Below the pieces are notes generated by a model. The model saw only the letters and a program-made list of their open reading frames with translations, had not been told where the DNA came from and made no database searches. This document shows positions 709 through 21,877 of a stretch of 64,000 bases of DNA, in pieces. The DNA comes from Candidatus Hydrogenedentota bacterium. GTDB taxonomy: Bacteria; UBA8481; J006. The stretch spans positions 17,562 to 81,561 of the forward strand of contig RFFU01000074.1 of the NCBI GenBank assembly GCA_003697085.1. Direction: 5' to 3'. Within the stretch, counting starts at the first letter, position 1. Each line of letters opens with the position of its first letter. The position numbers and the translations under genes are program-made.

Positions 709-1584
709 TTATTGGTCAGAGTCCGATCCGGAAGAGGACACTTTTGCGGCGAGGCATCCAGTGAGAAGAAGCAGCGGCCACGCCAATGGTGAGGCGTAGA
801 GACGTTCGGGAGGCCAGAGCAGAGGCGAAACATCCTGTCGGGCAATGAAAAAGAGCGGCGAGGATTTCATCAGAAAGATCCACGCGCTGTGAAGGCCGAC
901 GGAGCGTCCGAGGCGGCCGGTGGCGACGAGGGGAAGCGCCAAGGCGATTCCCGTGCAGAAGAGGCCGAAGGCTTCGGGAGGAATCTGTTGGCCGGGGCGG
1001 ATACGAAGAAAGTGAATCGCGCTGAAGAAAAGGCTCCCGAGAAGAATGCCGGCGGTGCTTCCACCAGAACGAACGAGGATTCCCGTGAGATACCCTCGCA
1101 TGAAGAACTCCTCGGAGAAGGCTATGATCAGGGCGGCGAGAAGATTTTCGAGAAGGCGGAAGGCGAGATCTCCGAGGGTGCGATTGAAACCGAAAAAGGC
1201 CGCGCCGAAAAGGATTCGAAGACCAAGGAAGAAAAGAAAAGGCACCAGACCGAGACGGAATCCGCGGAGGATATCTCCGGTGAGCGCGGAGGAGGGAGCG
1301 AGGCCGACCCGGTTCCAGCCCTCGGGAAAGGTGAAAGTGTAATGAAGGGCGGCCCCGAGAGCCGAGAGAGCCGCGAGGCGGGTAAAGATGCGTTCCGGAG
1401 TGAACGTAGGAAAAAGGGGATGAAGAAGCAACGCGAGAAAAACTGACCCGACCAGAGCGGCGGCGACGCCGGCGAGAAGATGGTGCAATTCGCGACGCCG
1501 CATCCTTGTATTGGCGTTTGAATTCATCCCACCTCCCGGTTGTCGGAAAGGAAGGATTCTATCTTTTGCCCGCGTTCCAAACAA
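709..1584 (-). CDS. CPBP family intramembrane glutamic endopeptidase (CAAX protease / bacteriocin-immunity Abi-like)
   Basis: Multi-TM protein with the diagnostic motifs EEFFMRGYL (EExxxR) and FSAIHF (FxxxH) spaced as in CPBP/Abi proteins. Confidence 0.75.
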   Translation of the reverse strand: MFGTRAKDRILPFRQPGGGMNSNANTRMRRRELHHLLAGVAAALVGSVFLALLLHPLFPTFTPERIFTRLAALSALGAALHYTFTFPEGWNRVGLAPSSALTGDILRGFRLGLVPFLFFLGLRILFGAAFFGFNRTLGDLAFRLLENLLAALIIAFSEEFFMRGYLTGILVRSGGSTAGILLGSLFFSAIHFLRIRPGQQIPPEAFGLFCTGIALALPLVATGRLGRSVGLHSAWIFLMKSSPLFFIARQDVSPLLWPPERLYASPLAWPLLLLTGCLAAKVSSSGSDSDQ

Positions 1585-1659
1585 GAAAGAGGCATCCTCC
1601 CTCCTCCCCCCTCCCTCTCCCCCGTGGGGAGAGGGTTGGGGTGAGGGGAATCTCCTCCG

Positions 1660-5930: not shown

Positions 5931-6487
5931 GAGAATTCCACGAAATGAATGGAAACCGAATCAATGGATCGACGGGATTTTCCCAACACGGATTTCCTTC
6001 TCATCCTCCCGGCGATGAGGGTAGCAAGCCGCCAGGGGGCGGGCAACCGATAAAGCGCCGGAAGGAATGCGGCGTAAAGTCGGTCCCTTGTGTCAATCCT
6101 GTTCTTCATTCCATCGAGTCCCCGTCTCATCTTCGCGGAGCCCTTCGTGGAGGAGGCCGGCCGGGTTCTCTCCCCCGGTGTCATTCCGAGCGAGGCGGAG
6201 CGAAGCAACGCCGACGAGGAATCCCCCATGAGTGCCATCCAGCGCATAGCGCGGGGTTCTTACCTGCGGAAATTCGCTTCATAGAGCGGCCAACCCTGGG
6301 AACGCAGGCATCCTGCCTGCATGGAAGGGATGGAACGTAGACTTTTCAGTCCACGCGAGTGAAACGCGGACTCTCCCGTCCGGGGAACGACGCGGCAAAG
6401 TTCGGCACAAATGCCCCCTCTTTGCCTCGCAACCGCGGAACCGCGGGGTTTGTTGCGAAAAGAACACCTCCCTCTTATACTTGATTT

Positions 6488-7474
6488 ATGTATCAAAAAC
6501 AGCGGATCGCGCTGGTTATTCCGGCTCACAACGAAGAGAAACTCATCGGAGATACGTTGCGGGGGGTTCCGGAACTTGTGGACGATATCTACGTAATTGA
6601 CGACGGTTCCACGGACGCGACCTCGGAATGCGCAAGGAAAGTCGGAGACCGCCGGGTCGTGGTCATTCGGAAGGAGAAGAACGAGGGAGTGGGAGCTGCG
6701 ATCGTTACGGGCTACAAGGTTGCCTTTGAGAGAGGCGCCGATATCGCCGTCGTGGTTGGTGGCGATAACCAGATGGACCTGGCGGAGATCGAGAATTTTC
6801 TTCGACCGATCATCGAGGGAGCGGCGGATTACACGAAAGGCAATCGGTTTCTCGATCCCTCCGGGACTTTCGAAAGAATGCCGACCGTCCGGCTCTTCGG
6901 AAATGCCTTGATTTCGGCGATGTGTAAATTGGCTTCCGGTTATTTCAAAGTTTATGATGCGGTGGACGGTTACACGGCGCTGTCGAGATATGGATTCGAG
7001 CAAGTTCGATGGAAGAAGGTCTGGAAGGGATATGGATATCCTTTGGACTTTCTCATTCGTCTCAATACTGCAGGACTTCGGGTAATGGATGTGCCGCGAC
7101 GCGCAATTTACCTTTCCGGGGTCCGACAATCCCAGATTCACGGTTTCTCGTATGCAATTCACGTGTTCCCGATGCTTCTGCGGGGTTTCTTTCGGCGACT
7201 GCTTTACAAATATATTCTTCGAGATTTCCATCCGCTCGTCTTCTTTTATTTGCTGGGGCTCTTCCTGGTTCCGGCGGGATTCGTTTTTGGCCTCTACCTC
7301 GTTTGGCAGCAGGCAAGCGGGATCGGCGTCTCCGGCCCCCGTGCCGTTTTGTGCGCCTTGGCGATCTTGATAGGAGTGCAATCCTTCTTCTTCGCCATCG
7401 CTTTCGAAATCCTGCATCAAGAATCCCCCGGAAACCGACGCCAAGAAGGTCGTTCGAAGCGACAATCGTTATGA
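6488..7474 (+). CDS. Glycosyltransferase family 2 with C-terminal TM helices (polyprenyl-phosphate sugar transferase / DPM-synthase-like)
   Basis: IALVIPAHNEEKLIGDTL...IYVIDDGSTDAT... (GT2 DxD context). The C-terminal ~90 aa are hydrophobic (2 TM). The gene is co-directional and only 137 nt upstream of the first precursor peptide gene. Confidence 0.8.
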   Translation: MYQKQRIALVIPAHNEEKLIGDTLRGVPELVDDIYVIDDGSTDATSECARKVGDRRVVVIRKEKNEGVGAAIVTGYKVAFERGADIAVVVGGDNQMDLAEIENFLRPIIEGAADYTKGNRFLDPSGTFERMPTVRLFGNALISAMCKLASGYFKVYDAVDGYTALSRYGFEQVRWKKVWKGYGYPLDFLIRLNTAGLRVMDVPRRAIYLSGVRQSQIHGFSYAIHVFPMLLRGFFRRLLYKYILRDFHPLVFFYLLGLFLVPAGFVFGLYLVWQQASGIGVSGPRAVLCALAILIGVQSFFFAIAFEILHQESPGNRRQEGRSKRQSL

Positions 7475-7573
7475 GAAAACGTTTTGAGAAAATCTTTCGT
7501 AAAAAAAATCACCGACTTCACCCCTTGCGAATCTTTTTCGATCCGGCTTTATTTTTCGATAGAGAGAAGAAAC

Positions 7574-7611
7574 GATTCTCCGCAATCGGGGAGAAAGGAG
7601 AGGTGAAAACG
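7574..7611 (+). promoter_or_regulatory. Conserved 5' leader with stem-loop plus Shine-Dalgarno (GGAGAGG) in front of precursor gene 1
   Basis: gattctccgcaatcggggagaaaGGAGAGGtgaaaacg. The palindrome TCTCC-gcaatcgg-GGAGA sits immediately 5' of the RBS. A near-identical copy precedes gene 2 at 7791..7828. Confidence 0.5.
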
Positions 7612-7758
7612 ATGGCGGAAAAGGAAGCTGAGAAGGTTGAGTCGGATTCCGGGAAGGAGCCGGAGAGGAAAGAGGAGGAGGCGCTTTCCGAGGAGGAGAT
7701 GCGGAAGGTGACGGGGGGACGACTCTTTGGAAATTCGATCGCCGGGCGGGTGCTATGA
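7612..7758 (+). CDS. Short precursor peptide with a double-glycine leader (48 aa: 36-aa leader + 12-aa core RLFGNSIAGRVL)
   Basis: MAEKEAEKVESDSGKEPERKEEEALSEEEMRKVTGG|RLFGNSIAGRVL. The LSxxEMxxVxGG motif matches the consensus recognised by C39 peptidase-ABC exporters. Strong RBS 7 nt upstream. Paralogous leader in the next gene. In the ORF track this is the in-frame tail of the spurious 7009..7758 ORF. Confidence 0.75.
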   Translation: MAEKEAEKVESDSGKEPERKEEEALSEEEMRKVTGGRLFGNSIAGRVL

Positions 7759-7790
7759 CTCGAGTGCTCTTCTTAAATGAGGGCGGAAAT

Positions 7791-7828
7791 GATTCCCCGC
7801 AGTCGGGGAGAAAGGAGAGGTGAAAAGG
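7791..7828 (+). promoter_or_regulatory. Second copy of the conserved 5' leader (hairpin CCCCG-cagt-CGGGG plus GGAGAGG RBS)
   Basis: gattccccgcagtcggggagaaaGGAGAGGtgaaaagg is 34/38 identical to 7574..7611. Confidence 0.5.
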
Positions 7829-8515
7829 ATGGCGGAAAAGGAAGACGGGAAGGCAAAAGCCGACAAAGAGAAGGAACCGGAAAGAAAACCGGAGGAACCC
7901 CTTTCGGAGGAGGAGATGAAGGATGTGGCGGGAGGGTTTATTCCCACTCCGGCCACTTTCGGGAATCCCCTTTCGTCCCGGATGGCGTCGAGATTGCGTC
8001 GGCGCGGCGCGGTCGGTCCGGTCGATCCCGAGGAGGCGGTCTCACGCGGTCCGGTCGATCCCGAACAAAGCCGGCGTCCCGACGATCCGAAACACCCGTG
8101 GCACCTTTGCTTCGGCCCGGAGACGCTGGTTCCAACGCGGAAGGGCTATCAGCCTATTTCTGGGATCGCAGTCGGTGACGAGATCGTCAGTGTCACCTTC
8201 GACGGAACCTTGTTCGTCGATCGGGTCGAAAAGCTGGACGTTCACCACGGGGAGATTTCCGTGATCGAACTTTCGTTGGACGACGACGTGATTCTCGTCA
8301 CTCCTGACCATAAGGTCTGGTCGGGCGAGAAATGGATCCGAGCCGCCGACTCGATCTATGTTTCCCGGACGAAGGTGGGAAGAATCGTTCCGGCGGTCTA
8401 TAACCTTCGAACCACCACGGGAACATACCTGGTCGGATACAGCGGACTGCTCGTTTCAGGTGGGCGGGTGGAAGACCTGCATTCCGAGGATCCGGTGGCG
8501 GAGGTTGCTCGGTAG
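7829..8515 (+). CDS. Precursor protein of 228 aa: double-glycine leader (36 aa), 57-aa core, and a C-terminal Hedgehog/intein-type Hint autoprocessing domain
   Basis: MAEKEDGKAKADKEKEPERKPEEPLSEEEMKDVAGG|FIPTPATFGNPLSSRMASRLRRRGAVGPVDPEEAVSRGPVDPEQSRRPDDPKHPWHL|CFGPETLVPTRKGYQPISGIAVGDEIVSV...ILVTPDHKVWS...VPAVYNLRTTTGTYLVGYSGLLVSGG. Hint block A begins with Cys (codon 8108..8110; compare CFTPES in Hedgehog). Block B is T-x-x-H (VTPDHKV). Block F/G-like VYNL..TGTYLV is present, but there is no terminal His-Asn. The track ORF starts at an in-frame GTG at 7820; the ATG at 7829 with an RBS matches gene 1. Confidence 0.75.
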   Translation: MAEKEDGKAKADKEKEPERKPEEPLSEEEMKDVAGGFIPTPATFGNPLSSRMASRLRRRGAVGPVDPEEAVSRGPVDPEQSRRPDDPKHPWHLCFGPETLVPTRKGYQPISGIAVGDEIVSVTFDGTLFVDRVEKLDVHHGEISVIELSLDDDVILVTPDHKVWSGEKWIRAADSIYVSRTKVGRIVPAVYNLRTTTGTYLVGYSGLLVSGGRVEDLHSEDPVAEVAR

Positions 8516-8549
8516 GAATGTCTTCACCTGACAATTCCTGAAGTTCCCG

Positions 8550-8590
8550 AAGGAGGGCGTGTTTTCGGAACCGTCCTCCTTTTCTTTTTT
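8550..8590 (+). terminator. Rho-independent terminator after the precursor genes
   Basis: aaggagggcg-tgttttcggaac-cgtcctcctt forms a 10-bp stem (one G-U pair) followed by tttctttttt. Confidence 0.55.
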
Positions 8591-8739
8591 GCCGTGCTCG
8601 CTCGATGTCTCCCAAACGTTTCACGCTTCGATTCGCTCTTCCCCCTACCGTTCTGTATCTTCCGAGCGTTCCATCGTTTCTTAGTCCGCGCTCCCCCCTT
8701 TCCGGCGCGGGACGGCGCGTAAATGGCGGGTGGCGGGTT

Positions 8740-10986
8740 TTACCCTTGTTGGAACGGTTCCCCCGGCGCTGCCTCCGCCATACGCTCGAGAAAATAGACC
8801 GCCGGGCCGTCGTAGGGAAGTCGTCGTGCGACCTCGGTGATCGATTCCTTGGCACGGGCGACGTCCTTTTCGCGGTAGGCTCGAACGCCCTTCTCCCACG
8901 TTTCCATAACCTCCAGGTAACTCTTCGGGAGCCGTGCGGTTTCATCCACAAGTTCGTAAACATCCAACGCGGCTTTCTGTCCCCGAAGCCGAAAGACTCC
9001 GACGGTACGGAAATAGAACCGGTTTGGAGCGCACTTTTCGACCTCTTGCTTCGTCTCTCCGGACGTCAGGATTGTCGTGCCGAGATCGCGGTTGAGACTT
9101 TCGAGCCGCGAGGCGATATTGACCGTCGTGCCGATGACCGTGTAATCGAAGATCGTTTCGGAACCGAGGTTTCCGGCCACGACTTCGCCTGTATGGATTC
9201 CGATTCGAATGCCGAGATTTGGCCACACTCCGCTGGCCCACGTCTGGGCCAGCTCCGCCACCGCCCGCCGCTTTTCCAGGGCGCAGGAACAGGCGAGCAC
9301 GGCGTGCTTCTCCTGGTGAAGAGGGACGTTCCATTCGGCCATCACCGCGTCGCCGATCATCTTGTCGATCGTTCCGTCGAACGCGACGATCTTCTCGGTC
9401 ATCCTCGTGAAGTAGGTGTTGAGGAAGCGGACCAGATCTTCCGACGGCAACTCCATCGCCCACCGACTGAAGTGTTTGATATCCGAAAAGAGGACGGTCG
9501 CCGTCGTCTTTCGACCGACGAGTGTCAGCGCCGAGGGGTCCTTCAGGATCTCCCGCATTACGGAGGGGGCGACGTATTTCTGAAAGGCCAATCGCAGCCT
9601 CCGTTTCTCCTCGAACTGGTGATAGGTCCAGTCCGACAGGAGGAAGATGCTGGAGGCGAGCAAGGGAGCCGCGACCGGAAGAAGAAAGCCTTTGTTCATC
9701 AGTACTGCGGCGGCTCCCAGAAGAAGAACGCCACTTCCCGCCAAGGATGTCACTCCCCAAACCAGATTGCGGCGCATCCCCCACCATGCAAGAAACGCCG
9801 TGAGGACCGTAAGCAGCCAACCGAGCCACCTTGGAGGGAGCCGGAGGGAGGTGGGATCGAGCAGGGTTGCCGTGGCGTTTGCCAAAATCCGAGTGTAAGG
9901 AAGGGAAACGCCCAAGGGAGTCCGAATCCTCTTCCGAGCGGGACCGATCAAAACGATTCGCCCGGAAAAACGGTCCCGCGACAGCCGTTTCGGCGCGTTA
10001 TCGAAAGCCGCGTCGTGCCACAGGTCGGCGAAGGAAAGCGGTTCCCCTGGAAAGACCTCGAAACGTCCCGCCCGATCCTTTCGATTCCGTTTCGGGTTTC
10101 GGTAATAGTTGACCAGGATGGTTTCGTCCGCATTGGCGGCGCTTTGCTCCCCGAGATTCCGGAGGAGCGAACATCGTGCGCGCCCGTTTCCAGTAAACCC
10201 ACCGGAGTTGCCGGAGAGAGAAGCCGTCCAACCGGCGATCGCCAACGGCAGAGACGGGAAGAAAACGCCCTTGACCTGGAGCCAGAGTGGGAATCCCATC
10301 GTGGGGCGTTCCGGGCGCCGAAAAGCAAGGAAGCCGATCTCCGTTTTCGGAGTCGATACGCGGGACGAGGGAAAAGAGACGCTCGGAACGGAAAGAATTT
10401 TCTTCGGGGGGGTGGAAAAGGAACAGGCGGCCGCGTCGAGTACGGCGGCTTGTTGCCGGTTTGAATTCGCGAAGCCCGAGTCGATTCGGAGAGGCAGGAT
10501 GTTGGGGATTCGATCGAGCGCACTTCGAAAGGAGGCATCCTGTTCTCGGGAGAAGAGGACGGGAAATTCCGCCACGAAGGTTTCGAGTTGGCTCTCTTGT
10601 TCGGCGAGGTGTTTTCGGAGCGCGTCACGGAAGATCGTTGAATTGAGTTTGACGGGAACTTCGTCCAGTACGAAGGGAATGTGGAACGCGACCCCCTGGG
10701 CCCCGTTCTCCGCGAGATATTCGACCACCTTCGCAAAAACACTTCTCGGCCAAGGAGGTTCTCCCATTTCGGGCTTCAGTCTTCGCAAACTTTCGTCATC
10801 GATTTCCACGACCGTGAGGGGCAACTCCGTGGTCGTTTCCCGGTAATGACGGCGTATCCGAAACGCGATGGTTTCTTCCTCGAGACCCTGAACGAGATAG
10901 AACGGGTCCAAGAGGACGAAGAGGACGATCACCGCGAGAAGAAGGGTGCTCGAGTGAGAGAAGTTCTTGACCGACCTAAGAATCAT
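8740..10986 (-). CDS. CHASE2 sensor domain-containing class III adenylate/guanylate cyclase
   Basis: N-terminal signal/TM, a large periplasmic region and several TM helices typical of CHASE2. C-terminal cyclase catalytic domain VLFSDIKHFSRWAMEL...FDGTIDKMIGDAVMAEWNVP...IRIGIHTGEVVAGNLGSE...YTVIGTTVNIASRLESL. Confidence 0.85.
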   Translation of the reverse strand: MILRSVKNFSHSSTLLLAVIVLFVLLDPFYLVQGLEEETIAFRIRRHYRETTTELPLTVVEIDDESLRRLKPEMGEPPWPRSVFAKVVEYLAENGAQGVAFHIPFVLDEVPVKLNSTIFRDALRKHLAEQESQLETFVAEFPVLFSREQDASFRSALDRIPNILPLRIDSGFANSNRQQAAVLDAAACSFSTPPKKILSVPSVSFPSSRVSTPKTEIGFLAFRRPERPTMGFPLWLQVKGVFFPSLPLAIAGWTASLSGNSGGFTGNGRARCSLLRNLGEQSAANADETILVNYYRNPKRNRKDRAGRFEVFPGEPLSFADLWHDAAFDNAPKRLSRDRFSGRIVLIGPARKRIRTPLGVSLPYTRILANATATLLDPTSLRLPPRWLGWLLTVLTAFLAWWGMRRNLVWGVTSLAGSGVLLLGAAAVLMNKGFLLPVAAPLLASSIFLLSDWTYHQFEEKRRLRLAFQKYVAPSVMREILKDPSALTLVGRKTTATVLFSDIKHFSRWAMELPSEDLVRFLNTYFTRMTEKIVAFDGTIDKMIGDAVMAEWNVPLHQEKHAVLACSCALEKRRAVAELAQTWASGVWPNLGIRIGIHTGEVVAGNLGSETIFDYTVIGTTVNIASRLESLNRDLGTTILTSGETKQEVEKCAPNRFYFRTVGVFRLRGQKAALDVYELVDETARLPKSYLEVMETWEKGVRAYREKDVARAKESITEVARRLPYDGPAVYFLERMAEAAPGEPFQQG

Positions 10987-11129
10987 CGTTCTTCCTTCCC
11001 GCCCGACTCGCGTTTTCGATCGCGTTCAAGGACGATTTCGATTCGGTATCCTAAACCACGAAGAAGGCTTTATTGGAGTGGAATTTCGAAGCGGAGGCGC
11101 TTCGCGACGATCCGCGAATCGAGCGTCCG

Positions 11130-11590
11130 TGCGTGGAGCGCGGATTCACCAGTCTGCGGATGGCCGAACCGCTCTGCACAGGTTGGAGAACCTGCGGCCC
11201 ATCCTTGCAGGCAAGATGCGTGCGCTCCGAGGGAGCGTAGACTCTCCAGTCTGCGAATTGCTAATTCGCCCTCCGTGGAAGGGGCTGGTTAGCGCTGGTG
11301 GGGGATTCCTCGTCGGCGTCGCTTCGCGCCGCCTCTCTCGGAATGACACAAGGGGGGAGCGAAGCGACACACTGTTGTCATCCCGAGTTCGCCTCAAGGC
11401 GAACGACGGATCTCCCCAACGCGGTATTCCGCATTGCGAACCGATCGGTGCCTGTGGGGGATTCCTCGGCGCTAATGCGCCTCGGACTGACAGGCCGATC
11501 CGGCTCCATGTTCGCCGTGTTACGGAGCGCGGAGACTCCTGTCTGCGAATTCAGCGATCCGTCGCTCGCCGCCGACCGCACCTGTGCATT
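11130..11590. repeat. Composite intergenic repeat element (module A in reverse orientation plus two module B copies)
   Basis: 11180-11245 caggttggagaacctgcggcccatccttgcaggcaagatgcgtgcgctcc is the reverse complement of module A. 11296-11345 and 11455-11480 carry gtgggggattcctcg...ctcggaatgaca (module B). Confidence 0.7.
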
Positions 11591-11718
11591 CCCATTTTTT
11601 CTTTCATTCGCTCTTGAAAATCAATACCAATTGGATTAAACTATAATGCTCTCCTGTTGGAGATTTCGGAGAAGATCGAATTTGAGGAACCGTGGGAGGC
11701 GGGAAGGAGTTCGCGTGT

Positions 11719-14875: not shown

Positions 14876-15496
14876 ATGATAGGTTGGGAAACGATGCGAA
14901 AGGTCCTTTTCATTCTCGGGCTCCTGACGGATCAGGATGTTGAACGCCTCGGGAGGCTGGGGTCCATCGAGAAGATTTCAGCGGGAGCGACGTTGATAGA
15001 AGCGGGGCGTCATCCCGACAAGGTCTATTTCATACTCAGCGGTATTTTTCGTGTTACGCGGAACGCTGCCGTCGGTACGGAGGGGGCGAGCGAGGGGGCG
15101 GTGGGTTCGAAAAACGTCGTGGCGGAACTGCGCGCGGGTGAAGTATTGGGGGAGATGTCGTTCGTTCAAGATGCGCCGCCGACGGAGACGGTCACGGCGG
15201 TCGGGGAGGGTGAGGTCTTGGCGATACCCCGCGAGGACCTCCGCGCCGTTCTCGAATCGGATCCCGCTTTCGCCTCGCGTTTTTATCAAGCCATCGCCGC
15301 TTTTCTTGCGGATCGCCTGCGCGGAACGATGAACCGGCTCTATGGGAGGCCGACGGAAACGGCGGGAGCGGGAGACGATGACTCGGAGAGAGGAACGATT
15401 CTCGAAGAGGACGAGTTGGATCCCCGCGTTCTTGATCGTGTTTCGCGTGCCGGAGAACGATTCGACCGATTGCTCAAGAAGTTCCGCGGGAGATAA
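14876..15496 (+). CDS. Cyclic nucleotide-binding domain protein (CAP-effector-domain family, no HTH)
   Basis: ...KVYFILSGIFRVT...RAGEVLGEMSFVQDAPPTETVTAVGEGEVLAIPREDL... is the canonical cNMP-binding beta-roll signature (G-E-x-S/A ... R-T-A-T-V-like). First gene of the exporter operon. Confidence 0.8.
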   Translation: MIGWETMRKVLFILGLLTDQDVERLGRLGSIEKISAGATLIEAGRHPDKVYFILSGIFRVTRNAAVGTEGASEGAVGSKNVVAELRAGEVLGEMSFVQDAPPTETVTAVGEGEVLAIPREDLRAVLESDPAFASRFYQAIAAFLADRLRGTMNRLYGRPTETAGAGDDDSERGTILEEDELDPRVLDRVSRAGERFDRLLKKFRGR

Positions 15497-15501
15497 GACG
15501 T

Positions 15502-16746
15502 ATGGTCGAATATCGCAAGGCGGCGCTCGATAAACTTGCTTCCCCCGAGCAACTCGACCGTCTCATTACGGTCACCGGTTCCCGTAGTTGGCTCGCTCTG
15601 GGCTCCATCTGTTTTCTTCTTCTCCTGATCCTCGTTTGGAGTGTCGTCGGGCGGATCCCCGTCACCGTCTCGGGACGCGGAATCCTGATCCGGGAGGGGG
15701 GGTTGGTTGAGATCGAGAGTCTGGGGACGGGATTAATTTCGGAGCTCCTGGTGGAGGAAGGGGATCACGTGGAGCCGGGCCAGCTGGTCGCTCGGATCCG
15801 ACAACCGACGCTCGTAACGGAGATCGAACAAGCGCGGGATCGGGTGCAGGAGCTCGAGGTGCAGCGGGAACGGACTTCGAAGCTAGAGTCGGAACGTGTC
15901 CGGCTGGGGGCCGCCGCGCTCGACCAACAGGAGGCGGAATTGCGAGGAACGATCCGCACCTCTCGGGAACGTGTTGCGTGGTTGGAGAAGCGGGTGGAGG
16001 CCTATCGCGATGCTGTTCGCGAGGGGCTGATCACGGAGGAGGAGTTGCGGCGGGTGATGAAGGAACGGGCGAGCGAGCGGGAGGTGATCGCGCGGGCCGA
16101 ATCCCGTCTCAAGAAGATCGCGTCGGATCGCCAAGCGCTGGAGACCGAGCGGGAGCGAAATCTTCTTGCGATCGACAAACAGCTCAGCGACGCCCGGCGG
16201 ACGCTGGCGGCTTTGGAGTCGCGGCTTCGCGAGGAAGGGCAGGTGTTTTCTCCGCACCGGGGCCGGGTCGTGGAGATCAAGGTCGAGCAAGGAGCGATTG
16301 TGACGAGGAACGCGGCCCTGATGAGTCTCGAGGCGGAAACGGGCCCGCTGGTCGCCGAGGTTTTCATTCCGGTCGAGGCGAAGAAGATACGCCGTGGGAT
16401 GGCGGCGCGGATCGCTCCCGCCACGGTGAAAAAGGAAGAGTACGGGATGATTGTCGGGCGCGTGGACGGTGTCTCGGCGCTTCCCGCCACGCGGGAAGGG
16501 ATGATGCATCTTTTGAAGAACGAATTGTTGGTCAAAGAACTGGCTTCGCGCGGCGCCCCCTTCCGTGTCACGTTGTCGCTCGAGGAGGATTCGGCGAGTT
16601 TCAGCGGTTTCCGATGGACCTCCTCGCGCGGGCCGAGAGTGCGGATCGAAAGCGGGATGCTCTGCGAGGGACGGATCGTCGTGGAGAAGAAGGCGCCGAT
16701 CCGCTTTCTTATTCCGGCGCTCAAGTCCTTCTTCGGCATAACGTAA
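15502..16746 (+). CDS. HlyD-family membrane fusion protein (bacteriocin-type / NHLM-type secretion adaptor)
   Basis: N-terminal cytoplasmic stretch, single TM (WLALGSICFLLLLILVWSVV), then long coiled-coil and beta-barrel hairpin regions typical of type I secretion MFPs. 6 nt downstream of the cNMP-binding gene. Confidence 0.8.
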   Translation: MVEYRKAALDKLASPEQLDRLITVTGSRSWLALGSICFLLLLILVWSVVGRIPVTVSGRGILIREGGLVEIESLGTGLISELLVEEGDHVEPGQLVARIRQPTLVTEIEQARDRVQELEVQRERTSKLESERVRLGAAALDQQEAELRGTIRTSRERVAWLEKRVEAYRDAVREGLITEEELRRVMKERASEREVIARAESRLKKIASDRQALETERERNLLAIDKQLSDARRTLAALESRLREEGQVFSPHRGRVVEIKVEQGAIVTRNAALMSLEAETGPLVAEVFIPVEAKKIRRGMAARIAPATVKKEEYGMIVGRVDGVSALPATREGMMHLLKNELLVKELASRGAPFRVTLSLEEDSASFSGFRWTSSRGPRVRIESGMLCEGRIVVEKKAPIRFLIPALKSFFGIT

Positions 16747-16757
16747 CTCGGAGAACG

Positions 16758-18962
16758 ATGGCTGTCGCCGCCGCGGAAGGTATCAAACCGTCTTCGGGAA
16801 AACCGCGGTTCCGTCGTGTCCGAACGCCGACGGTTCTTCAGATGGAGGCGGTGGAGTGCGGCGCGGCATCGCTGGCGATTATTCTCGAGTATTACGGCCG
16901 CGTGGTTCCGCTCGAGGAACTTCGCGTCGCATGCGGGGTGACGCGGGACGGAAGCAACGCCTTTCATTTGATCTCGGCTGCGCGGGAGTACGGATTCGAA
17001 GCCCACGGATACCGAAAGGACATTCCCCACCTCTACAACATCAAACCGCCCTTCATCATCTTCTGGAACTTCAACCATTTTTTGGTCGTCGAGGGATTGG
17101 CCAAGGATCGCGTTTTTCTCAACGATCCCGCGATGGGACCGCGCGTCGTTCCGATGGACGAATTCAACGAGTCCTACACCGGCGTTGTTCTGACCTTTGA
17201 ACCGACGCCGCGCTTCAGGAGAGGGGGACGCCGTCCGAGCCTGTCAGCGGCGGTCTGGAACCGCGTACGCCACTCTTCCGAAGGCATCGCCTACGCCGCT
17301 GTGGCGGCCGTCGCGCTCGTCGGCCCCGGATTGGCGGTTCCCGCCTTTTCGCGGATCTTCATCGATGACATTCTCATCGGCGGAATGCACGACTGGATCC
17401 GTCCCGTCCTGCTCGGTTTGGCGATCACTGGGTTTTTTCGCGTCTTTCTTACCTTTCTCCAGTCCCATTCTCTTCTTCGGCTCGAAACGAAACTTTCGAT
17501 CACCCAGACCGGTCGCTTTTTGCACCATATCCTTCATCTTCCCGTCTCGTTCTACCAGCAGCGTTACGGCGGAGAAATCAGCAACCGAGTCGGTTTCAAT
17601 TCGGACATCGCCCGCATCCTTTCGAACCGTCTCGCCGGAACGATCCTGGACCTTTTCATGACTGTCTTTTATGGAACGGTTCTCTTTCTGCTTTCTCCGG
17701 TGTTGATGCTGATTGCGGTTCTGGGAGTGGCCGCGAATGCCGTTACGGCTCGGACGATGCATCGGACCCTGACCGACGAGAACCTCCGTCTTCAGCAAGA
17801 GGCCGGAGCGACTTTGTCCGCGGCGATGTCCGGCGTGGCCTCGATCGAGACGCTGAAGGCGACGGGGAGCGAATCGGACTTCTTCGCGAACTGGGCGGGG
17901 CATCACGCGAAATACACGGTGACGATGCAAAACCTGAGTCTCAAAAGTGCTCTCTATTCCTCCCTCTCGACCCTCGTGAATTCCCTTTCGGACGTGGCGA
18001 TTCTGGGAGCCGGGGCCCTTCTGATTATGAACGGCCGCATCACGATGGGAACCTTTGTCGCCTTTCACGCGCTCTCCGCCTCCTTTGCGGGTCCGGTGAC
18101 GCGGATCATCAATCTCGCGACGGTGATTCAAGCCTTGCGCGCGCGCCTTGTCCGTCTCGACGACGTGCTCAATCACAAACACGCGCCGGACCTGCGGGTC
18201 GCGGAATCGACGCCGGTCGTTGCAGAAGAGGAAGAGAAACTTTCGGGACATCTCGAGATCCGCAATCTCACCTTCGGCTATTCGCGTTTCGATCCGCCGT
18301 TGATCGAGAATTTTTCGATGACGATCGCTCCGGGCGGGCGCGTGGCTTTGGTGGGGGCATCGGGATGCGGGAAATCGACATTGGCGAAACTGATCACCGG
18401 ATTGTACGAGCCGTGGGAGGGTGAGATTTATTTCGACGGACGTCCGCGAAAGGCGATCCCGCGTTCCGTGCTTACGAGCTCCGTTGCGATGGTGGATCAA
18501 GAGATTTCACTCTTTTCCGGAACCATTCGCGAGAACATTACACTTTGGGACGAGACGATTCCGGATATCGAAGTGGTGCGGGCGGCCAAGGATGCGGCGA
18601 TTCACTCCGAGATCACAGCGCGCGCGGGGGGATATGACGCGGAGTTGGAGGAGGGAGGAGCGAATCTTTCCGGCGGTCAACGCCAGAGGCTGGAGATCGC
18701 CCGGGCGCTCGTGACGAATCCTCGCCTGCTGATTCTGGACGAGGCGACCAGCGCTCTCGATCCCGTGACCGAGAAGGAGATCGATCGCAATCTGCGGGTG
18801 CGCGGTTGTACCTGCGTGATCGTCGCCCATCGGCTTTCGACGATTCGCGACGCGGACGAGATCATCGTCCTTGAACGCGGCCGGGTGGTTCAAAGGGGGA
18901 CGCACGAGGAATTGATCGCCGATCCGGACGCGCCGTATGCGCGATTGGTAAAGGCTCAATGA
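16758..18962 (+). CDS. Peptidase C39 domain-containing ABC transporter (double-glycine leader cleaving, bacteriocin exporter, peptidase/permease/ATPase)
   Basis: N-terminal C39 domain with catalytic Cys in MEAVECGAASLAIIL and His in FNHFLVVEG. Six-TM permease. C-terminal NBD with Walker A GASGCGKST, signature LSGGQRQRLEIARAL and Walker B LLILDEATSALD. The ATG at 16758 is used; the track ORF's upstream extension overlaps hlyD and is spurious. Confidence 0.88.
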   Translation: MAVAAAEGIKPSSGKPRFRRVRTPTVLQMEAVECGAASLAIILEYYGRVVPLEELRVACGVTRDGSNAFHLISAAREYGFEAHGYRKDIPHLYNIKPPFIIFWNFNHFLVVEGLAKDRVFLNDPAMGPRVVPMDEFNESYTGVVLTFEPTPRFRRGGRRPSLSAAVWNRVRHSSEGIAYAAVAAVALVGPGLAVPAFSRIFIDDILIGGMHDWIRPVLLGLAITGFFRVFLTFLQSHSLLRLETKLSITQTGRFLHHILHLPVSFYQQRYGGEISNRVGFNSDIARILSNRLAGTILDLFMTVFYGTVLFLLSPVLMLIAVLGVAANAVTARTMHRTLTDENLRLQQEAGATLSAAMSGVASIETLKATGSESDFFANWAGHHAKYTVTMQNLSLKSALYSSLSTLVNSLSDVAILGAGALLIMNGRITMGTFVAFHALSASFAGPVTRIINLATVIQALRARLVRLDDVLNHKHAPDLRVAESTPVVAEEEEKLSGHLEIRNLTFGYSRFDPPLIENFSMTIAPGGRVALVGASGCGKSTLAKLITGLYEPWEGEIYFDGRPRKAIPRSVLTSSVAMVDQEISLFSGTIRENITLWDETIPDIEVVRAAKDAAIHSEITARAGGYDAELEEGGANLSGGQRQRLEIARALVTNPRLLILDEATSALDPVTEKEIDRNLRVRGCTCVIVAHRLSTIRDADEIIVLERGRVVQRGTHEELIADPDAPYARLVKAQ

Positions 18963-21877
18963 CGGCGCGCGATCTGCTCGCGTCTCTCGCTCGGCTCGGT
19001 CCAGAACGGGATGTGAGCGGGAAGGAGACGTTCTACGTTCAGGGAGCCGAACGCGCGTGGGTCCTGACGAAAGGCGTTGTCGATGTCTTCGCGGTTATGC
19101 TCGAGGACGAGCGGCCCATCGGCCCGCGACATTACCTCTTCAGCGCCTCGCCGGGAATCATTCTCTTCGGTGTCGATCTTCTCCGCTACCACAAGCGTTG
19201 TGCTCTGTTGGCGGTCGGAGTTCCGGGAACGCGTGTTGTTTCCTTCGGCATCGCGGATTTGGTCGAGACGGCCCGGCGAAGTGGAACGCTGGAGGCGCTG
19301 GCGAGGCAGATTGAGGATTTTTCTGGAAAGGTAGGGGCGCTCTTCACCGCTCGTGAGCGGCCACCGTTCGATGAATTTCTCGCCGTGGGAGAGGAACGAG
19401 AGGTTCCGGCGGGTCGTGTTCTCGGAACGGAGCGCGGAATTACTTGGGTCCACGTGATCGGGGGGAAGGTCCGGCTCTGTGGTTTCGAGGATCTCGTCGT
19501 GGAGGCCGACGGCACCGCCGTTCCTCTCGCCCCGGGGCTTTGGCTCGAAACACTTATTGCGTCACATCTCGAGGTGATCGACAGCCGCGCGTTGCTTGAA
19601 CGCGATCCGCGCCTGAAGGCGTTGGGAAATTTGCAAGCCGTATATGTCCGATGGATCGAGGACCGCATCGCGGCGAAGCGGGCCGAGGAGCGGGAACGAA
19701 TTTCCCGGAGGCGTGAGCGGGATCAGGCGATTCTTGCCAAGGCTCTGGAGGATCTTAGCAGTGTTCTTGTCGGAAAAGGGCGCGCCGTGCCGGAGCACGA
19801 TCGTCCTCTGTTGGCCGCCTTGAATCGGATCGGCGCCGCGCTCGATTTGGATTTTCACCTTCCTTCGGAGTGGGAGTTGAGCCGGTACGGCGCCGCGCCT
19901 CTCGAGGCCATCTGCCGCCGTTCGCGGATCCGCCACCGGCGGGTGGCCCTTTACGGAGATTGGTATCGCCGGGACAACGGGCCGTTATTGGTCTTTCGAG
20001 ACAAGGAGCACGGGGCAACGCCCGTAGCCGCGGTTCCTCTTTCGGAGTCGCAGTACGAATACTTTGACCCTGTCACGGGAGCGACGGGGATTCTGACGCG
20101 GGATGTTGCCGCCACGCTCGATCCCTTCGGCGTGATGTTTTATCCTCCGCTTCCCGCAAAACCGCTTCACGTCTTTCAACTACTCAGACACGGAAGCCGG
20201 TTCGTTTCGAAGGACCTCCGGCGGGTGTTGGGGTTGAGTTTGGCGGCCGGCGCGCTTTCGCTGGCGTTGCCGTGGGCGACAGGGCTCCTTTTCAGCGACG
20301 TGATTCCTTCTTCCGAGCGACCGCTTCTTCTGCAGGTTGTTTTAGCGCTGTTGATCGCTTCTTCCGTCCAGACGCTCTTCCATTTCGTTCGCACGATTGC
20401 GCTGACGCGGATGCGGGCACGGTGGGGCGAGACGGTTCAGGCGGCGCTGTGGGACCGGATCGCTTCCTTGCCTCCGCGATTCTTCCGCCGCTTCACCGTC
20501 GGGGATCTCGTGGATCGCGCCGAGGTCGTGGATCACCTGCGCGAGGAACTCAGCGGCGCCGGGCTGACGGCCATCATCGGCGGGTTGATGTCGCTGATGC
20601 AATTTATTTTGATGTTCTACTATAGCCGGGTTCTCGCTCTGGGAGCCTTGGGAATCACGGCGCTCTTTGCTCTCGTGACCGGAGGCCTTGCCGTGGGAAT
20701 GCTGCGGTACGAGAGGGAGATGCAGAGGATCGCGGGGCGCCTCTCGGGTTTTCTTTACCAGGTGATCACCGGCATTGCCAAGATTCGGGTGGCGGGGGCC
20801 GAGGAACGGGCGTTTGCGGAATGGGCGCGACGGTTCCGCCGCGAACGCCTTCTCCGCTTCCGGGCCGGCTCCTACCAGAACATCATTCTCACCGTCAATG
20901 CCGGGCTGCCGATCCTTTCGACGATTCTCGTCTTTCTCCTTGTGCGTTATGCCGCGTTGCTCCCGGAGGGAGCCTGGATCAGTGTCGGGGATTTCATTGC
21001 CTTCAACGCCGCGATGACCGTCTTCCTCAACTCCGCGCTTTCGCTTACCGACACGGCGGTCAACCTTCTCAACCTCGTCCCGATGTTCGAACGCGTCGAG
21101 CCGATTCTTGTGACGGAGCCGGAAGCGCGGGAGGATCGGCCGGATCCGGGGCGCATCACCGGTTCTGTCGAGATGAGTCACGTTTCGTTTCGGTATCATC
21201 CCGACGGGCCGCTTGTTCTCGACGATGTTTCGTGGTCGGCGGCGCCCGGGGAGTTCGTTGCGTTGGTCGGGCCGTCCGGGGGAGGCAAATCGACGATCAT
21301 CCGGTTGTTGCTGGGATTCGAAATCCCGGAGACGGGAAACATCTATTTCGATGGGAGGGATGTATCGGCGGTGGACGTCACGGCGTTGCGGCGTCAGATC
21401 GGAGTCGTTCTCCAGAACAGCCGGCTCCGCCCCGGCTCGATCTTCGACAATATCGTCGGTTCCTCGAATCTTACCCTCGATGATGCCTGGCGTGTGGCCG
21501 AGCAGGCGGGTTTGAAGGAGGATATCGAGGCGATGCCGATGGGAATGCACACGAACATTTCCGAGGGAGGGACGACGTTTTCGGGGGGGCAGCGACAACG
21601 AATTCTGATCGCCCGCGCGCTGATTCATCAACCGCGAATCCTGATCTTCGACGAAGCGACGAGTGCCCTGGACAACACGACGCAGAAAGTCGTCTCCGAC
21701 AGTCTCGACCGTCTCAATGCAACGCGGATCGTGATCGCCCATCGCCTTTCGACGATCCGAAATGCCGACAGAATCTATGTAATCGAGAAGGGAAGGATTG
21801 TACAACGGGGAAACTACGAGGAATTGATGACGGAGGGAGGTCTATTCACCGACCTCGCGCGCCGTCAACTCGCTTAG
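18959..21877 (+). CDS. ABC transporter ATP-binding/permease with N-terminal cyclic nucleotide-binding-like domain (second component of the NHLM-type exporter)
   Basis: 972 aa. The N-terminal ~150 aa are cNMP-binding-like (ETFYVQGAERAWVLTKGVVDVF). Then a degenerate peptidase-like region, a 6-TM permease, and an NBD (GPSGGGKST; FSGGQRQRILIARAL; ILIFDEATSALD). ATGA start/stop overlap with the preceding gene. Confidence 0.85.
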   Translation: MTARDLLASLARLGPERDVSGKETFYVQGAERAWVLTKGVVDVFAVMLEDERPIGPRHYLFSASPGIILFGVDLLRYHKRCALLAVGVPGTRVVSFGIADLVETARRSGTLEALARQIEDFSGKVGALFTARERPPFDEFLAVGEEREVPAGRVLGTERGITWVHVIGGKVRLCGFEDLVVEADGTAVPLAPGLWLETLIASHLEVIDSRALLERDPRLKALGNLQAVYVRWIEDRIAAKRAEERERISRRRERDQAILAKALEDLSSVLVGKGRAVPEHDRPLLAALNRIGAALDLDFHLPSEWELSRYGAAPLEAICRRSRIRHRRVALYGDWYRRDNGPLLVFRDKEHGATPVAAVPLSESQYEYFDPVTGATGILTRDVAATLDPFGVMFYPPLPAKPLHVFQLLRHGSRFVSKDLRRVLGLSLAAGALSLALPWATGLLFSDVIPSSERPLLLQVVLALLIASSVQTLFHFVRTIALTRMRARWGETVQAALWDRIASLPPRFFRRFTVGDLVDRAEVVDHLREELSGAGLTAIIGGLMSLMQFILMFYYSRVLALGALGITALFALVTGGLAVGMLRYEREMQRIAGRLSGFLYQVITGIAKIRVAGAEERAFAEWARRFRRERLLRFRAGSYQNIILTVNAGLPILSTILVFLLVRYAALLPEGAWISVGDFIAFNAAMTVFLNSALSLTDTAVNLLNLVPMFERVEPILVTEPEAREDRPDPGRITGSVEMSHVSFRYHPDGPLVLDDVSWSAAPGEFVALVGPSGGGKSTIIRLLLGFEIPETGNIYFDGRDVSAVDVTALRRQIGVVLQNSRLRPGSIFDNIVGSSNLTLDDAWRVAEQAGLKEDIEAMPMGMHTNISEGGTTFSGGQRQRILIARALIHQPRILIFDEATSALDNTTQKVVSDSLDRLNATRIVIAHRLSTIRNADRIYVIEKGRIVQRGNYEELMTEGGLFTDLARRQLA

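Follow-up and report, generated by a model that had tools for sequence, protein, structure and literature searches.

The gene at positions 7829-8515 of the window (the whole stretch of 64,000 nucleotides analyzed here) probably specifies the precursor of a ribosomal peptide, with a putative removable module at either end. The 228-amino acid (aa) protein consists of three parts, namely a double-glycine leader (residues 1-36), a variable segment (residues 37-93), and a Hint domain that starts at Cys94 and is followed by a 16-aa tail (Table 1). An identical sequence is deposited at NCBI as [quoted passage not shown]. The terminal Hint domain may be an undescribed way to release or chemically activate the tail of secreted peptides. 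No description of this leader-core-terminal-Hint architecture was found in the full-text literature searched (subscription-only papers were outside the scope), and within that literature the novelty claimed by an earlier sequence-only reading of this DNA stands.

Gene Structure, Leader, and Variable Segment

The GC3 of the gene (0.68) is typical of the window. A frameshift artefact or a pseudogene was rejected on the basis of the ribosome-binding site (RBS), the start codon, the conserved size of the relatives, and the invariant catalytic residues. The sequence-only reading had described this open reading frame (ORF; 228 aa), its division into a 36-aa leader, a 57-aa core, and a Hint domain starting at the Cys codon 8108..8110, and a short paralogous precursor, which is the 48-aa paralogue with the leader in common; all of these features were found as described.

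The end of the leader reads L(-12) S E E E(-8) M(-7) K D V(-4) A G G, and positions -12, -11, -8, -7, -4, -2, and -1 fit the double-glycine (GG) consensus. Such leaders were recognized by hydrophobic residues at -4, -7, and -12, an acidic residue at -8, and GG at -2/-1, a pattern found in both the 7829-8515 product and the tandem paralogue, which are the only two ORFs with such a leader in the 64 kb. The duplication that links the two genes covers the RBS plus the leader, with 77% DNA identity. Curated GG-leader models match the 7829-8515 leader only below their cut-offs, and the NCBIfam scan gave no match of the protein to any NHLP or Nif11 leader family. The assignment of the leader to the C39-cleaved type is supported by the consensus fit and by the recurrence of the leader in the tandem paralogue.

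The variable segment (residues 37-93) contains 10 Pro and 8 Arg, has no Cys, and is hydrophilic and charged (9 K+R, 7 D+E). The GPVDPE(E/Q) duplication noticed earlier is present and corresponds to a 33-bp tandem repeat in the DNA. Given its low complexity, predicted disorder, and recent 33-bp duplication, this core may serve as little more than a spacer, without bioactivity of its own.

Table 1. Features of the precursor gene, its tandem paralogue, and the export-related genes in the 64-kb window.
Feature	Position	Strand	Remarks
CPBP (Rce1-like) intramembrane protease, possible immunity/maturation factor	709..1584	-	Weak link, 6 kb away
48-aa tandem paralogue	7612..7758	+	Same RBS and leader (LSEEEMRKVTGG); 12-aa core RLFGNSIAGRVL
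Ribosome-binding site AGGAG	7813..7817	+	11 nt 5' of ATG; arrangement repeated before the 48-aa paralogue
Leader-core-Hint gene, intact	7829..8515	+	228 codons plus stop; ATG 7829, stop 8513-8515
Double-glycine leader, residues 1-36, ending LSEEEMKDVAGG	7829..7936	+	Consensus match; weak GG-leader model matches
Variable "core" or spacer, Pro/Arg-rich, residues 37-93 (57 aa)	7937..8107	+	AF2 pLDDT <50 over residues 37-66
33-bp tandem duplication	8015..8064	+	17-nt identical cores GGTCCGGTCGATCCCGA at 8015-8031 and 8048-8064; GPVDPE(E/Q) encoded twice
Junction motif DDPKHPWHL, residues 85-93	8081..8107	+	(D/E)PKHP kept 4-8 residues before Cys1 in closest relatives
Hint domain, Cys94-Gly212	8108..8464	+	Family profiles, PDB matches, AF2 model
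Cys94 (TGC) = Hint Cys1	8108..8110	+	Invariant; predicted nucleophile of N-S acyl shift
D137-V-H139	8237..8245	+	Asp aligns with Hedgehog D46; His invariant in family
T158-P-D-H161 = block B T-x-x-H	8300..8311	+	Thr and His both invariant
Block F/G-like VYNLRTTTGTYLVGYSGLLVSGG	8396..8464	+	Ser210-Gly211 where inteins have His-Asn
C-terminal tail, 16 aa (213-228), RVEDLHSEDPVAEVAR	8465..8512	+	Non-conserved; no C-extein or toxin domain
cNMP-binding protein, first gene of exporter operon	14876..15496	+	Like bacteriocin-type transport-associated protein TIGR03896, below cut-off
NHLP bacteriocin system HlyD-type secretion protein	15502..16746	+	TIGR03794, 348 bits vs. 156 cut-off
C39 peptidase/permease/ATPase exporter subunit	16758..18962	+	TIGR03796, 1026 bits vs. 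853; Q/C/H/D present
Second permease/ATPase exporter subunit, without peptidase	18959..21877	+	TIGR03797, 876 bits vs. 709 cut-off

Identity and Active-Site Residues of the Hint Domain

For residues 94-212, family profiles and structural comparison both support a HINT fold far more strongly than chance would allow. Among 15 aligned relatives, Hint_2 of Pfam is matched by all (E<=0.01), PT-HINT by 10, and Hint by eight, and the family profile matches the PDB entry 2LWY at an E-value of 1.2e-12, as well as BIL2, inteins, and Hedgehog. Relatives that exceed the cut-offs include the second precursor gene of locus L025 (Hint_2 30.5, PT-HINT 30.1) and P0004 (intein_Nterm 35.0). By comparison, the 7829-8515 protein alone is below the Pfam/NCBIfam cut-offs for Hint_2 (18.7 bits vs. 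28.4), Hint (11.6 vs. 29.7), and intein_Nterm (15.2 bits vs. 24.5). The Hint similarity claimed from the sequence therefore holds in family-level Pfam and PDB matches, whereas the single sequence stays below every curated Hint/intein cut-off. The AF2 model, built from the 15-sequence alignment, supports the Hint fold with pLDDT >90 across most of residues 91-210; with a 2-sequence alignment, pLDDT was 44.7. In both sequence and structure comparison, 2LWY is the best match, and the top structural matches include the BIL2 domain from the Tetrahymena BUBL locus. A match to the designed propeller "SAKe" (PDB 7OP4) was discarded as a repeat-driven artefact.

In a 22-sequence alignment, C94, T158, and H161 are invariant and D137 is at least 90% conserved. 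C94, D137, T158, and H161 align with Hedgehog C1, D46, T69, and H72 (hhalign probability 94%), and phmmer comparisons to 1AT0 and 6TD6 agree with this alignment. The N-terminal Hint catalytic residues named by the sequence-only reading (Cys1 and T158-x-x-H161) are thus present and conserved. Because Ser-Gly replaces His-Asn, the N-terminal acyl shift, with N-cleavage, is left as the sole chemically possible reaction; this had also been proposed earlier, and it agrees with the Gly that stands where inteins have their C-terminal Asn and with the lack of a C-extein. The further claim that nothing follows the Hint domain is correct with regard to a C-extein or a toxin domain, but the Hint fold is not literally last because the 16-aa tail follows.

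These substitutions also bear on the idea that the gene encodes a true (mini-)intein, or one half of a split intein, and joins the core to a second polypeptide by splicing. Such an identity would fit the HINT fold with Cys1 and T-x-x-H and the weak matches to intein_Nterm and DnaE inteins, but it is extremely unlikely and was rejected, as the defining features fail: the C-terminal Asn/Gln, the +1 nucleophile, and the C-extein are absent, no host protein is interrupted, the block F Asp is replaced by Asn (VYN, as in 2LWY), and no gene for a partner C-intein was seen in the window.

Comparison With Other Hint Proteins

Hedgehog/Hog C-terminal domains (1AT0) resemble the 7829-8515 protein in having the cargo first and Hint last without a C-extein, and in sharing Cys1, T-x-x-H, and the Asp aligned with D46. 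Several differences separate the two. The 7829-8515 protein is bacterial and lacks a sterol-recognition region, with only 16 unconserved residues after Hint, and its family has no conserved second Cys like Hh C143. Moreover, where Hedgehog carries a folded signaling domain, its cargo is a short peptide with a leader, and export is predicted to proceed through a peptidase-ABC exporter rather than by a signal peptide.

BIL domains are bacterial Hint domains without a +1 nucleophile whose products come from cleavage, not splicing. The 7829-8515 domain also has no +1 nucleophile, and its block F Asn is found in the BIL domain 2LWY (Clostridium thermocellum). Described BILs lie within large secreted or variable proteins and keep their C-terminal flanks, and type A retains His-Asn. 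Here, in contrast, Hint is terminal, Ser-Gly stands in place of His-Asn, and what precedes the domain is a leader with a short core.

Pretoxin-HINT (PF07591) is a third relevant group, as relatives score on PF07591 and members of the terminal-Hint clade are also attached to RHS tips and to giant surface proteins. In polymorphic toxins, HINT is located just before the C-terminal toxin, frees the downstream part, and is tied to T2SS, T5SS, T7SS, or TcdB/TcaC export (PMC3482391). The 7829-8515 protein differs in that the cargo is upstream, no domain is present downstream, and the GG leader is the export signal.

Relatives With the Terminal-Hint Layout

Relatives were obtained mainly from an exhaustive HMMER search; a word-indexed protein search gave few, even with profiles. 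The profile matches numbered 4954. A degenerate DNA pattern for YN[LIV][RQ]TxxGTY[LI]VG located seven genome loci and six short metagenome loci. Locus L004 was rejected, as an unrelated Lachnospiraceae protein contains the motif there by chance. When relatives were clustered at 50% identity, the 170-250-aa layout was found in 10 or more independent clusters, which come from different phyla. The GG-leader motif is present in 14 of the 50 terminal-Hint relatives (2.4 expected from shuffles, with a maximum of eight in 500), whereas other Hint architectures have it in six of 94 cases (7.3 expected), such that enrichment is confined to the terminal-Hint proteins.

This distribution argues against a degenerate remnant, that is, an orphan pretoxin-HINT piece left from the decay of a polymorphic-toxin gene, or a reading frame created by a frameshift artefact, with a fortuitous "leader". 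Although relatives match Pfam PT-HINT, many family-profile matches are large multi-Hint or RHS proteins, and the adjacent 48-aa paralogue can be read as a truncated copy, such an origin is very improbable. An RBS and an ATG of its own precede and start the ORF, its GC3 is typical of the window, and the HINT domain of polymorphic toxins precedes a toxin instead of following a cargo (PMC3482391). The recurring layout, the invariant catalytic residues, and the GG enrichment effectively refute this explanation.

The cargos of the relatives are diverse. P0155, P0156, and P0060 combine a TIGR03898 leader and a Ser/Thr/Cys core with a terminal Hint of the same clade, and resemble class II lanthipeptide precursors. 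Their mersacidin-type leader scores 64 bits (cut-off 23.5). P0155 is encoded on contig DATIVC010001549.1 of GCA_035466255.1, and genes of the P0155/P0060 type are found at one locus as tandem copies downstream of the end of a LanC-like gene (a lanthipeptide-synthetase gene fragment). The 7829-8515 precursor differs from class II lanthipeptides in its type of leader and in its core without Cys, and neither LanM nor LanC was found among the ORFs scanned in the 64 kb. Hydrophobic, Gly-rich, bacteriocin-like cores precede the terminal Hint in P0034, P0050, P0101, and P0133. Among these, P0101 has a GG leader and adjoins two B12 radical-SAM genes, beside which long-leader Gly-rich peptides fused to Hint recur, and P0034 has a CPBP gene 1.1 kb downstream. 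The fusions of mersacidin-type leaders to Hint by the LanC-like gene end, and of GG-leader Gly-rich peptides to Hint by B12 radical-SAM genes, strengthen the peptide-natural-product role suggested by the sequence-only reading. Terminal Hint domains also occur behind RHS toxin tips (P0014, P0028, P0051, P0058, and P0119) and in giant Planctomycete proteins, where they follow a variable enzymatic domain in the penultimate position. At a Cytophagales locus (L007), the protein that ends in Hint is lipoprotein-like.

Some close relatives, from Verrucomicrobiota and Kiritimatiellae, have only about 23 residues before Cys1 and lack GG, and a purely "exported core peptide" model leaves them unexplained. 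In addition, tblastn detected no homologs of the exporter (PCAT), HlyD, CPBP, or GT2 in the fetched loci of the relatives, a result that says little because the contigs are short (1-14 kb for most). Other GG-leader/Hint fusions, for which the sequence-only reading had suggested a metagenome search, do exist; none of the relatives' contigs contains a PCAT homolog.

Proposed Release Mechanism and Its Alternatives

We infer self-cleavage, export, and a thioester fate for the 7829-8515 product along the following lines. Cys94 would attack the Leu93 carbonyl in an N-S acyl shift, converting the Leu93-Cys94 peptide bond to a thioester. Resolution of this thioester by a nucleophile, for which water, a thiol, a hydroxyl group of a lipid or sugar, and an amine are candidates, would detach the 135-aa Hint module and free the upstream peptide, which would then carry a free or derivatized C-terminus. 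During export, the C39 domain of the 16758-18962 exporter would cut the leader at Gly36/Phe37, and the 48-aa paralogue, with its leader in common, would use the same exporter. Because the terminal Hint is fused behind lanthipeptide-like, Gly-rich, RHS, and Planctomycete cargos, it may represent a general self-removing C-terminal cap or activator of secreted cargo. Hedgehog C-domains carry out the N-S acyl shift only (PMC7664689).

A stronger proposal, which we put forward tentatively, is that the precursor makes its own C-terminal thioester for Hedgehog-style attachment to a specific acceptor (lipid, glycan, or amine) or for a macrocycle, under an undescribed RiPP logic. A macrocycle or acceptor reading of this kind would span lanthipeptide-like, bacteriocin-like, and Pro/Arg-rich peptides, with no need for a separate activating enzyme or ATP.

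In a more specific version of the main model, Hint would pass the C-terminal carbonyl of the peptide to a defined acceptor, such as an amine, a hydroxyl group on a lipid or glycan, or the new N-terminus of the peptide after leader removal, and the products would be C-terminally lipidated, esterified, amidated, or head-to-tail cyclized. D46 of Hedgehog is the base that activates cholesterol, and the near-invariant D137 aligns with it and is followed two residues on by an invariant His; however, this Asp/His pair may be structural, and DnaE inteins have His/Asp in that loop. The conservation of (D/E)PKHP before Cys1 in the closest relatives suggests that the released C-terminus is recognized by something. 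The Tetrahymena BIL2 domain, which is among the top structural matches, reportedly mediates conjugation. A membrane GT2 gene is located immediately upstream on the same strand, but its size and predicted C-terminal membrane helices resemble those of a polyprenyl-phosphate glycosyltransferase in a polysaccharide gene neighborhood. With an unconserved 16-aa tail in place of a sterol-recognition-like extension, and with no consistently linked acceptor-making enzyme in the relatives, transfer to a defined acceptor appears rather unlikely.

Alternatively, Hint may be a protective or solubilizing pro-domain, i.e., a temporary cap through which the producer holds a cargo that is toxic or acts on membranes in an inactive or soluble state, and which drops off by simple hydrolysis or thiolysis, with no further role for the thioester. 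This possibility, which we consider doubtful, is consistent with the kinds of cargo in front of terminal Hint domains, which include hydrophobic Gly-rich cores, the toxin tips of RHS proteins, and variable enzymatic domains in giant proteins of Planctomycetes, and with the observation that BIL domains yield mainly cleavage products (PMC7664689). Being hydrophilic and charged, however, the core encoded in the window needs no solubilizer, and the pro-domain explanation does not account for the conserved junction motif or the D46-aligned Asp.

If the Hint domain is active, these precursors would be natural counterparts of intein-thioester tools (expressed protein ligation and SICLOPPS) used on the bacteria's own secreted peptides, as well as a bacterial parallel to the cholesterol modification of Hedgehog. 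A self-contained, enzyme-free C-terminal activation would join the repertoire of ribosomal peptide maturation, could provide a reason for the terminal Hint behind RHS toxin tips and giant surface proteins, and would allow genomes to be mined for new products of the lanthipeptide-like and bacteriocin-like kinds by the combination of leader plus terminal Hint. Even if the thioester is only hydrolyzed, a self-removing C-terminal pro-domain on double-glycine-leader precursors would still be undescribed in the literature searched.

Export and Genomic Context

In the main model, the N-terminal module would be removed during export. A complete NHLP-type peptidase/ABC operon (14876-21877) is located 6-13 kb downstream of 7829-8515, and its TIGR03794, TIGR03796, and TIGR03797 scores all exceed the trusted cut-offs. 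The sequence-only reading had placed the exporter 9 kb away and had counted a co-located CPBP protease as further support. A C39-ABC exporter is indeed present in the window, but the operon begins at 6.4 kb and the C39 gene at 8.2 kb downstream; the CPBP gene is likewise present (709..1584), but its link to the precursor is weak, as it is 6 kb away. The gene downstream of 7829-8515 is a convergent CHASE2 adenylate cyclase, and the region between precursor and exporter contains this adenylate cyclase, a PLD gene, and an NTase-related gene on mixed strands. Because such unrelated genes intervene, only the type of leader and the short distance link the precursor to the exporter. The size of the cargo, 192 aa, also counts against the main model, as it is large for ABC exporters with a peptidase domain.

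The locus shares several features with those of double-glycine peptides (class II bacteriocins/microcins, NHLP/Nif11, and NHLM export), including the leader consensus, tandem paralogues, the three-gene TIGR03794/03796/03797 exporter in the region, and a CPBP gene nearby. In contrast to NHLP/Nif11 precursors, the 7829-8515 leader is neither NHLP nor Nif11, and no GG-leader model scores it above its cut-off. Known double-glycine-leader substrates end with the core, and we know of none described that bears a 135-aa autoprocessing domain.

No modifying enzyme (LanM, LanC, radical SAM, YcaO, and similar) was recognized among the scanned ORFs of the 64-kb window. A glycocin reading, prompted by the GT2 gene directly upstream of 7829-8515, was rejected because this GT2 looks like a membrane polyprenyl-phosphate-type enzyme within a polysaccharide neighborhood. 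The neighbors in the window are glycosyltransferases, an FkbM methyltransferase, signaling proteins, and housekeeping genes.

Gene Architecture and Domain Assignment

From its in-frame ATG, the Hint gene encodes a 228-aa product that is identical to an NCBI entry on a 199.7-kb contig ('MAG: hypothetical protein D6679_07460 [Candidatus Hydrogenedentota bacterium]'), and the coordinates and three-part layout proposed in the sequence-only reading are correct. The GC3 of this gene (0.68) is like that of other genes in the window. The leader (residues 1-36) ends in LSEEEMKDVAGG. The 57-aa core (residues 37-93) is Pro/Arg-rich (10 P and 8 R) and contains GPVDPEE and GPVDPEQ, which are encoded by a 33-bp tandem DNA duplication, suggesting replication slippage and rapid turnover of this variable segment.

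For the C-terminal part, family-level evidence from profiles and a predicted structure settles the assignment as a Hint domain. As a single sequence, the protein matched curated models only below their thresholds (E-values: Hint_2, 0.0023; Hint, 0.21; intein_Nterm, 0.033). It resembled DnaE inteins and Hedgehog in the PDB only weakly, and every one of these matches was anchored at Cys94. The profile check proposed for the protein itself remained sub-threshold, but the family-level result is clear. One relative (P0002) shares the layout at 36% identity. At E<=1e-3, an exhaustive search with the profile yielded 4954 proteins. Among 15 aligned small relatives, Pfam models matched as Hint_2 (15/15), PT-HINT (10/15), Hint (8/15), and Intein_splicing (5/15). 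The family profile matched 2LWY, a bacterial intein-like (BIL) domain from Clostridium thermocellum (E 1.2e-12), followed by Tetrahymena BIL2, inteins, and Hedgehog. In the AF2 model from the 15-sequence alignment, block means of pLDDT lie at 90-97 across most of residues 91-210, drop to 78-85 near residues 171-190, and are <50 for core segment 37-66.

Coordinates of features in the window and in loci encoding relatives
Feature	Position	Strand	Source or remark
CPBP protease	709-1584		Window
Glycosyltransferases (GT2, GT4, GT1) and FkbM methyltransferase	6488-7474 (+), 4656-5930 (-), 21928-27011		Flank precursor pair and exporter
Paralogue	7612-7758	+	48 aa; same RBS and double-glycine leader; 12-aa core RLFGNSIAGRVL
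AGGAG	7813-7817		Upstream of ATG 7829
Hint gene ORF	7820-8515	+	In-frame ATG at 7829
Tandem duplication, variable segment	8015-8031, 8048-8064	+	33 bp; 17-nt identical cores
Cys94 codon TGC	8108-8110	+	Window
CHASE2-sensor adenylate/guanylate cyclase	8740-10986	-	Between precursor pair and exporter operon
NHLP-type exporter operon	14876-21877	+	Window
Cyclic-nucleotide-binding, 'bacteriocin-type transport-associated'-like protein	14876-15496	+	First gene of exporter operon
MoxR-type AAA ATPase, BatD-domain protein, TPR protein	30344-39835	+	Bat/aerotolerance-like cluster
Alpha-glucan phosphorylase	41714-44341		Window
GTPase Der	45352-46617		Window
L025: LanC-like gene 3' end (PF05147, 29.2 bits vs 23.2), two tandem 224-aa genes	1-2013		Thermoanaerobaculia MAG GCA_035466255.1, DATIVC010001549.1
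L015: cluster around 379-aa terminal-Hint protein	3172-12686		Logan SRR11659435 contig
L005, L006: short relatives, MNRKLTELLPSKTIAACKGIHEC/CF... at Cys1	L005 4367-4900; L006 6758-7291 (-)		Verrucomicrobiota and Kiritimatiellae MAGs
L003, L008: repeat proteins	L003 99-7370; L008 3-6959		Planctomycetaceae and Pirellulaceae MAGs

Catalytic Residues and Comparison with Known Systems

In a 22-sequence alignment, C94, T99, H139, T158, H161, W169, N192, and Y200 are invariant, and D137 is at least 90% conserved. Alignment by hhalign to Drosophila Hh-C (probability 94%; the first 80 residues of the Hh-C sequence were confirmed by the 1AT0 alignment) pairs Hedgehog C1, D46, T69, and H72 with C94, D137, T158, and H161, respectively. 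Alignment to 2LWY matches the C-terminal VYNLRTTTGTYLVGYSGLLVSGG with intein blocks F and G, with Ser210-Gly211 at the His-Asn position of inteins. No C-extein +1 residue follows the Hint domain; the earlier statement that nothing follows is right about the C-extein, but a 16-aa unconserved tail is present. With the N-terminal catalytic set kept, Ser-Gly in place of His-Asn, and no +1 residue, the protein is chemically equipped for the N-S acyl shift, and Asn cyclisation and splicing are excluded. This agrees with the proposal that only the N-terminal reaction is possible, and with the established chemistry of Hh-C and BIL domains (PMC7664689).

In its mode of action, the protein probably resembles Hedgehog/Hog proteins and BIL domains. 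It does not qualify as an intein (the Asn and C-extein features are absent) or, lacking a sterol-recognition region, as a member of the Hedgehog family. The N-terminus is similar to those of double-glycine-leader bacteriocin/RiPP precursors, none of which, to our knowledge, has been described with an autoprocessing domain. In the pretoxin-HINT arrangement, HINT lies immediately ahead of the toxin (PMC3482391), whereas terminal-Hint proteins have the reverse order; with its cargo upstream, the present protein is not a pretoxin-HINT. The same survey of polymorphic toxins says nothing of double-glycine export (PMC3482391). The earlier claim of novelty held in the searchable, non-subscription full-text literature, where no description of the leader-core-terminal Hint architecture was found. 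We regard the protein as a module of known chemistry whose biosynthetic role is new.

Recurrence of Leader and Terminal Hint

Of the 150 top representatives, 50 carry just one Hint domain, located <=45 residues from the C-terminus. GG-leader-like motifs occur upstream in 14 of these 50 (shuffles predict 2.4, with a maximum of 8 in 500), compared with 6/94 (7.3 expected) in other Hint architectures. Approximately ten of these 14 motifs are convincing (e.g., ...KEEMSRITGG, ...KDDMAKVMGG, ...QAEIKDIIGG, ...PEEAQAITGG, ...RSELSQVSGG, and ...REELLRILGG), with the motif 36-90 aa from Cys1. A tail-less sub-clade (P0060, P0061, P0068, P0080, P0052, P0113, and P0128) ends exactly in ...VRDH, ...VRQH, ...VRDS, or ...VRHN, and P0080 retains a literal C-terminal His-Asn with nothing beyond.

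The cargo upstream is of three independent kinds. In the subfamily of the window, the middle is low-complexity (S/T/P-rich or Pro/Arg-rich), and (D/E)PKHP is conserved 4-8 residues upstream of Cys1. The second kind (P0155, P0156, and P0060) is lanthipeptide-like, with a mersacidin/lichenicidin-type leader (TIGR03898, 64 bits vs cut-off 23.5), a core with conserved Ser/Thr/Cys (..TSSWVCGV..C..), a linker of Gly/Ser or Pro, and a Hint domain that ends exactly in ...LLVRDC or ...LLVRDH. The leader type is also NCBI's name for the protein, and the L025 genes are listed there as type 2 lantibiotics, with Hint unmentioned. Each tandem L025 gene, downstream of the LanC-like 3' end, combines a mersacidin-type leader, Ser/Thr/Cys core, GGGSGG linker, and Hint with the end ...LLVRDC; a second MAG likewise has two tandem copies. 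The third kind (P0034, P0050, P0101, and P0133) is bacteriocin-like, with a Gly-rich hydrophobic core after the GG site. The P0101 gene is flanked by two B12-binding radical-SAM genes, plus methyltransferase and sulfotransferase genes, and a CPBP gene lies 1.1 kb downstream of P0034. The L015 cluster has methyltransferase and sulfotransferase genes alongside two B12-binding radical-SAM genes, together with an Orn/DAP decarboxylase and an unknown gene of 337 aa; its 379-aa protein has ~185 N-terminal aa without a Pfam match, ending ...KLSPAEMNELQGG, then a Gly-rich hydrophobic core and terminal Hint. B12 radical-SAM fragments are also found on the contigs of P0004 and P0005. No peptidase-ABC exporter was found on the contigs of the relatives, most of which are 1-14 kb long.

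Leader, Exporter, and Neighborhood

The leader agrees with the double-glycine consensus at -12, -11, -8, -7, -4, -2, and -1. When all six frames of the 64 kb were scanned with a leader pattern, only the Hint gene and the paralogue matched convincingly; the remaining matches are not leader-like. The short paralogous precursor reported earlier is a tandem duplicate with 77% DNA identity from ~45 bp upstream of the start to the first core residues (FGNSIAGR vs FGNPLSSR). It stops where the Hint gene runs on and may represent either a truncated copy or another exported peptide.

A competent exporter lies nearby. The NHLP-type bacteriocin export operon is complete, with a cNMP-binding accessory protein (TIGR03896-like, below cut-off), HlyD (TIGR03794, 348 bits vs cut-off 156), C39 peptidase/permease/ATPase (TIGR03796, 1026 vs 853), and a second permease/ATPase (TIGR03797, 876 vs 709). 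Its C39 domain keeps Q/C/H/D (LQMEAVECGAASL ... NHFLVV ... NDPA). The co-location claim stands in these respects, but unrelated genes intervene (the convergent CHASE2 adenylate cyclase, a PLD-family protein, and an NTase-substrate-binding protein). Given these genes and the position of the CPBP protease, linkage is plausible but loose. The cyclase and the cNMP-binding gene hint at cyclic-nucleotide control of export. No modifying enzyme was recognizable in the window; the flanking glycosyltransferases (GT2 with apparent C-terminal membrane helices) and FkbM methyltransferase resemble polysaccharide genes, and their involvement in modifying the peptide is unsupported. The Bat-like cluster, alpha-glucan phosphorylase, and Der represent ordinary housekeeping context.

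Proposed Mechanism

We moderately favor an inferred mechanism in which Cys94 would form a thioester from the Leu93-Cys94 bond, a nucleophile would resolve it and free the upstream peptide, and the C39 exporter would strip residues 1-36 in the course of export. The thioester may be resolved by simple hydrolysis/thiolysis, making Hint a self-removing cap, or by Hedgehog-like transfer/cyclisation. The D46-aligned Asp, an invariant His two positions further on, and conservation of the junction motif make us lean slightly toward a specific acceptor.

Short Relatives and Larger Cargo

Close relatives with short N-termini (P0009, P0153, P0154, L005, and L006; Verrucomicrobiota and Kiritimatiellae) have only ~23 residues ahead of Cys1. 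They share an MxRIxIxxLP start with GG-leader members, lack GG, and have housekeeping neighbors; any exported core peptide model leaves their function unexplained. The same terminal Hint clade also sits on larger cargo. Among the profile hits, P0014, P0028, P0051, P0058, and P0119 have RHS C-terminal tips (DPxGL), a small domain, and then terminal Hint; such cargo would be released on one side by the RHS aspartyl protease and on the other by Hint. The orthologous giant L003 and L008 repeat proteins (about 2300-2400 aa) are similar along most of their sequence, with repeats in common, and have a divergent ~250-aa penultimate domain followed by terminal Hint. This layout is polymorphic-toxin-like, with Hint after rather than before the variable domain. 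L008 has an additional partial YDLQT..GTCLVG block.
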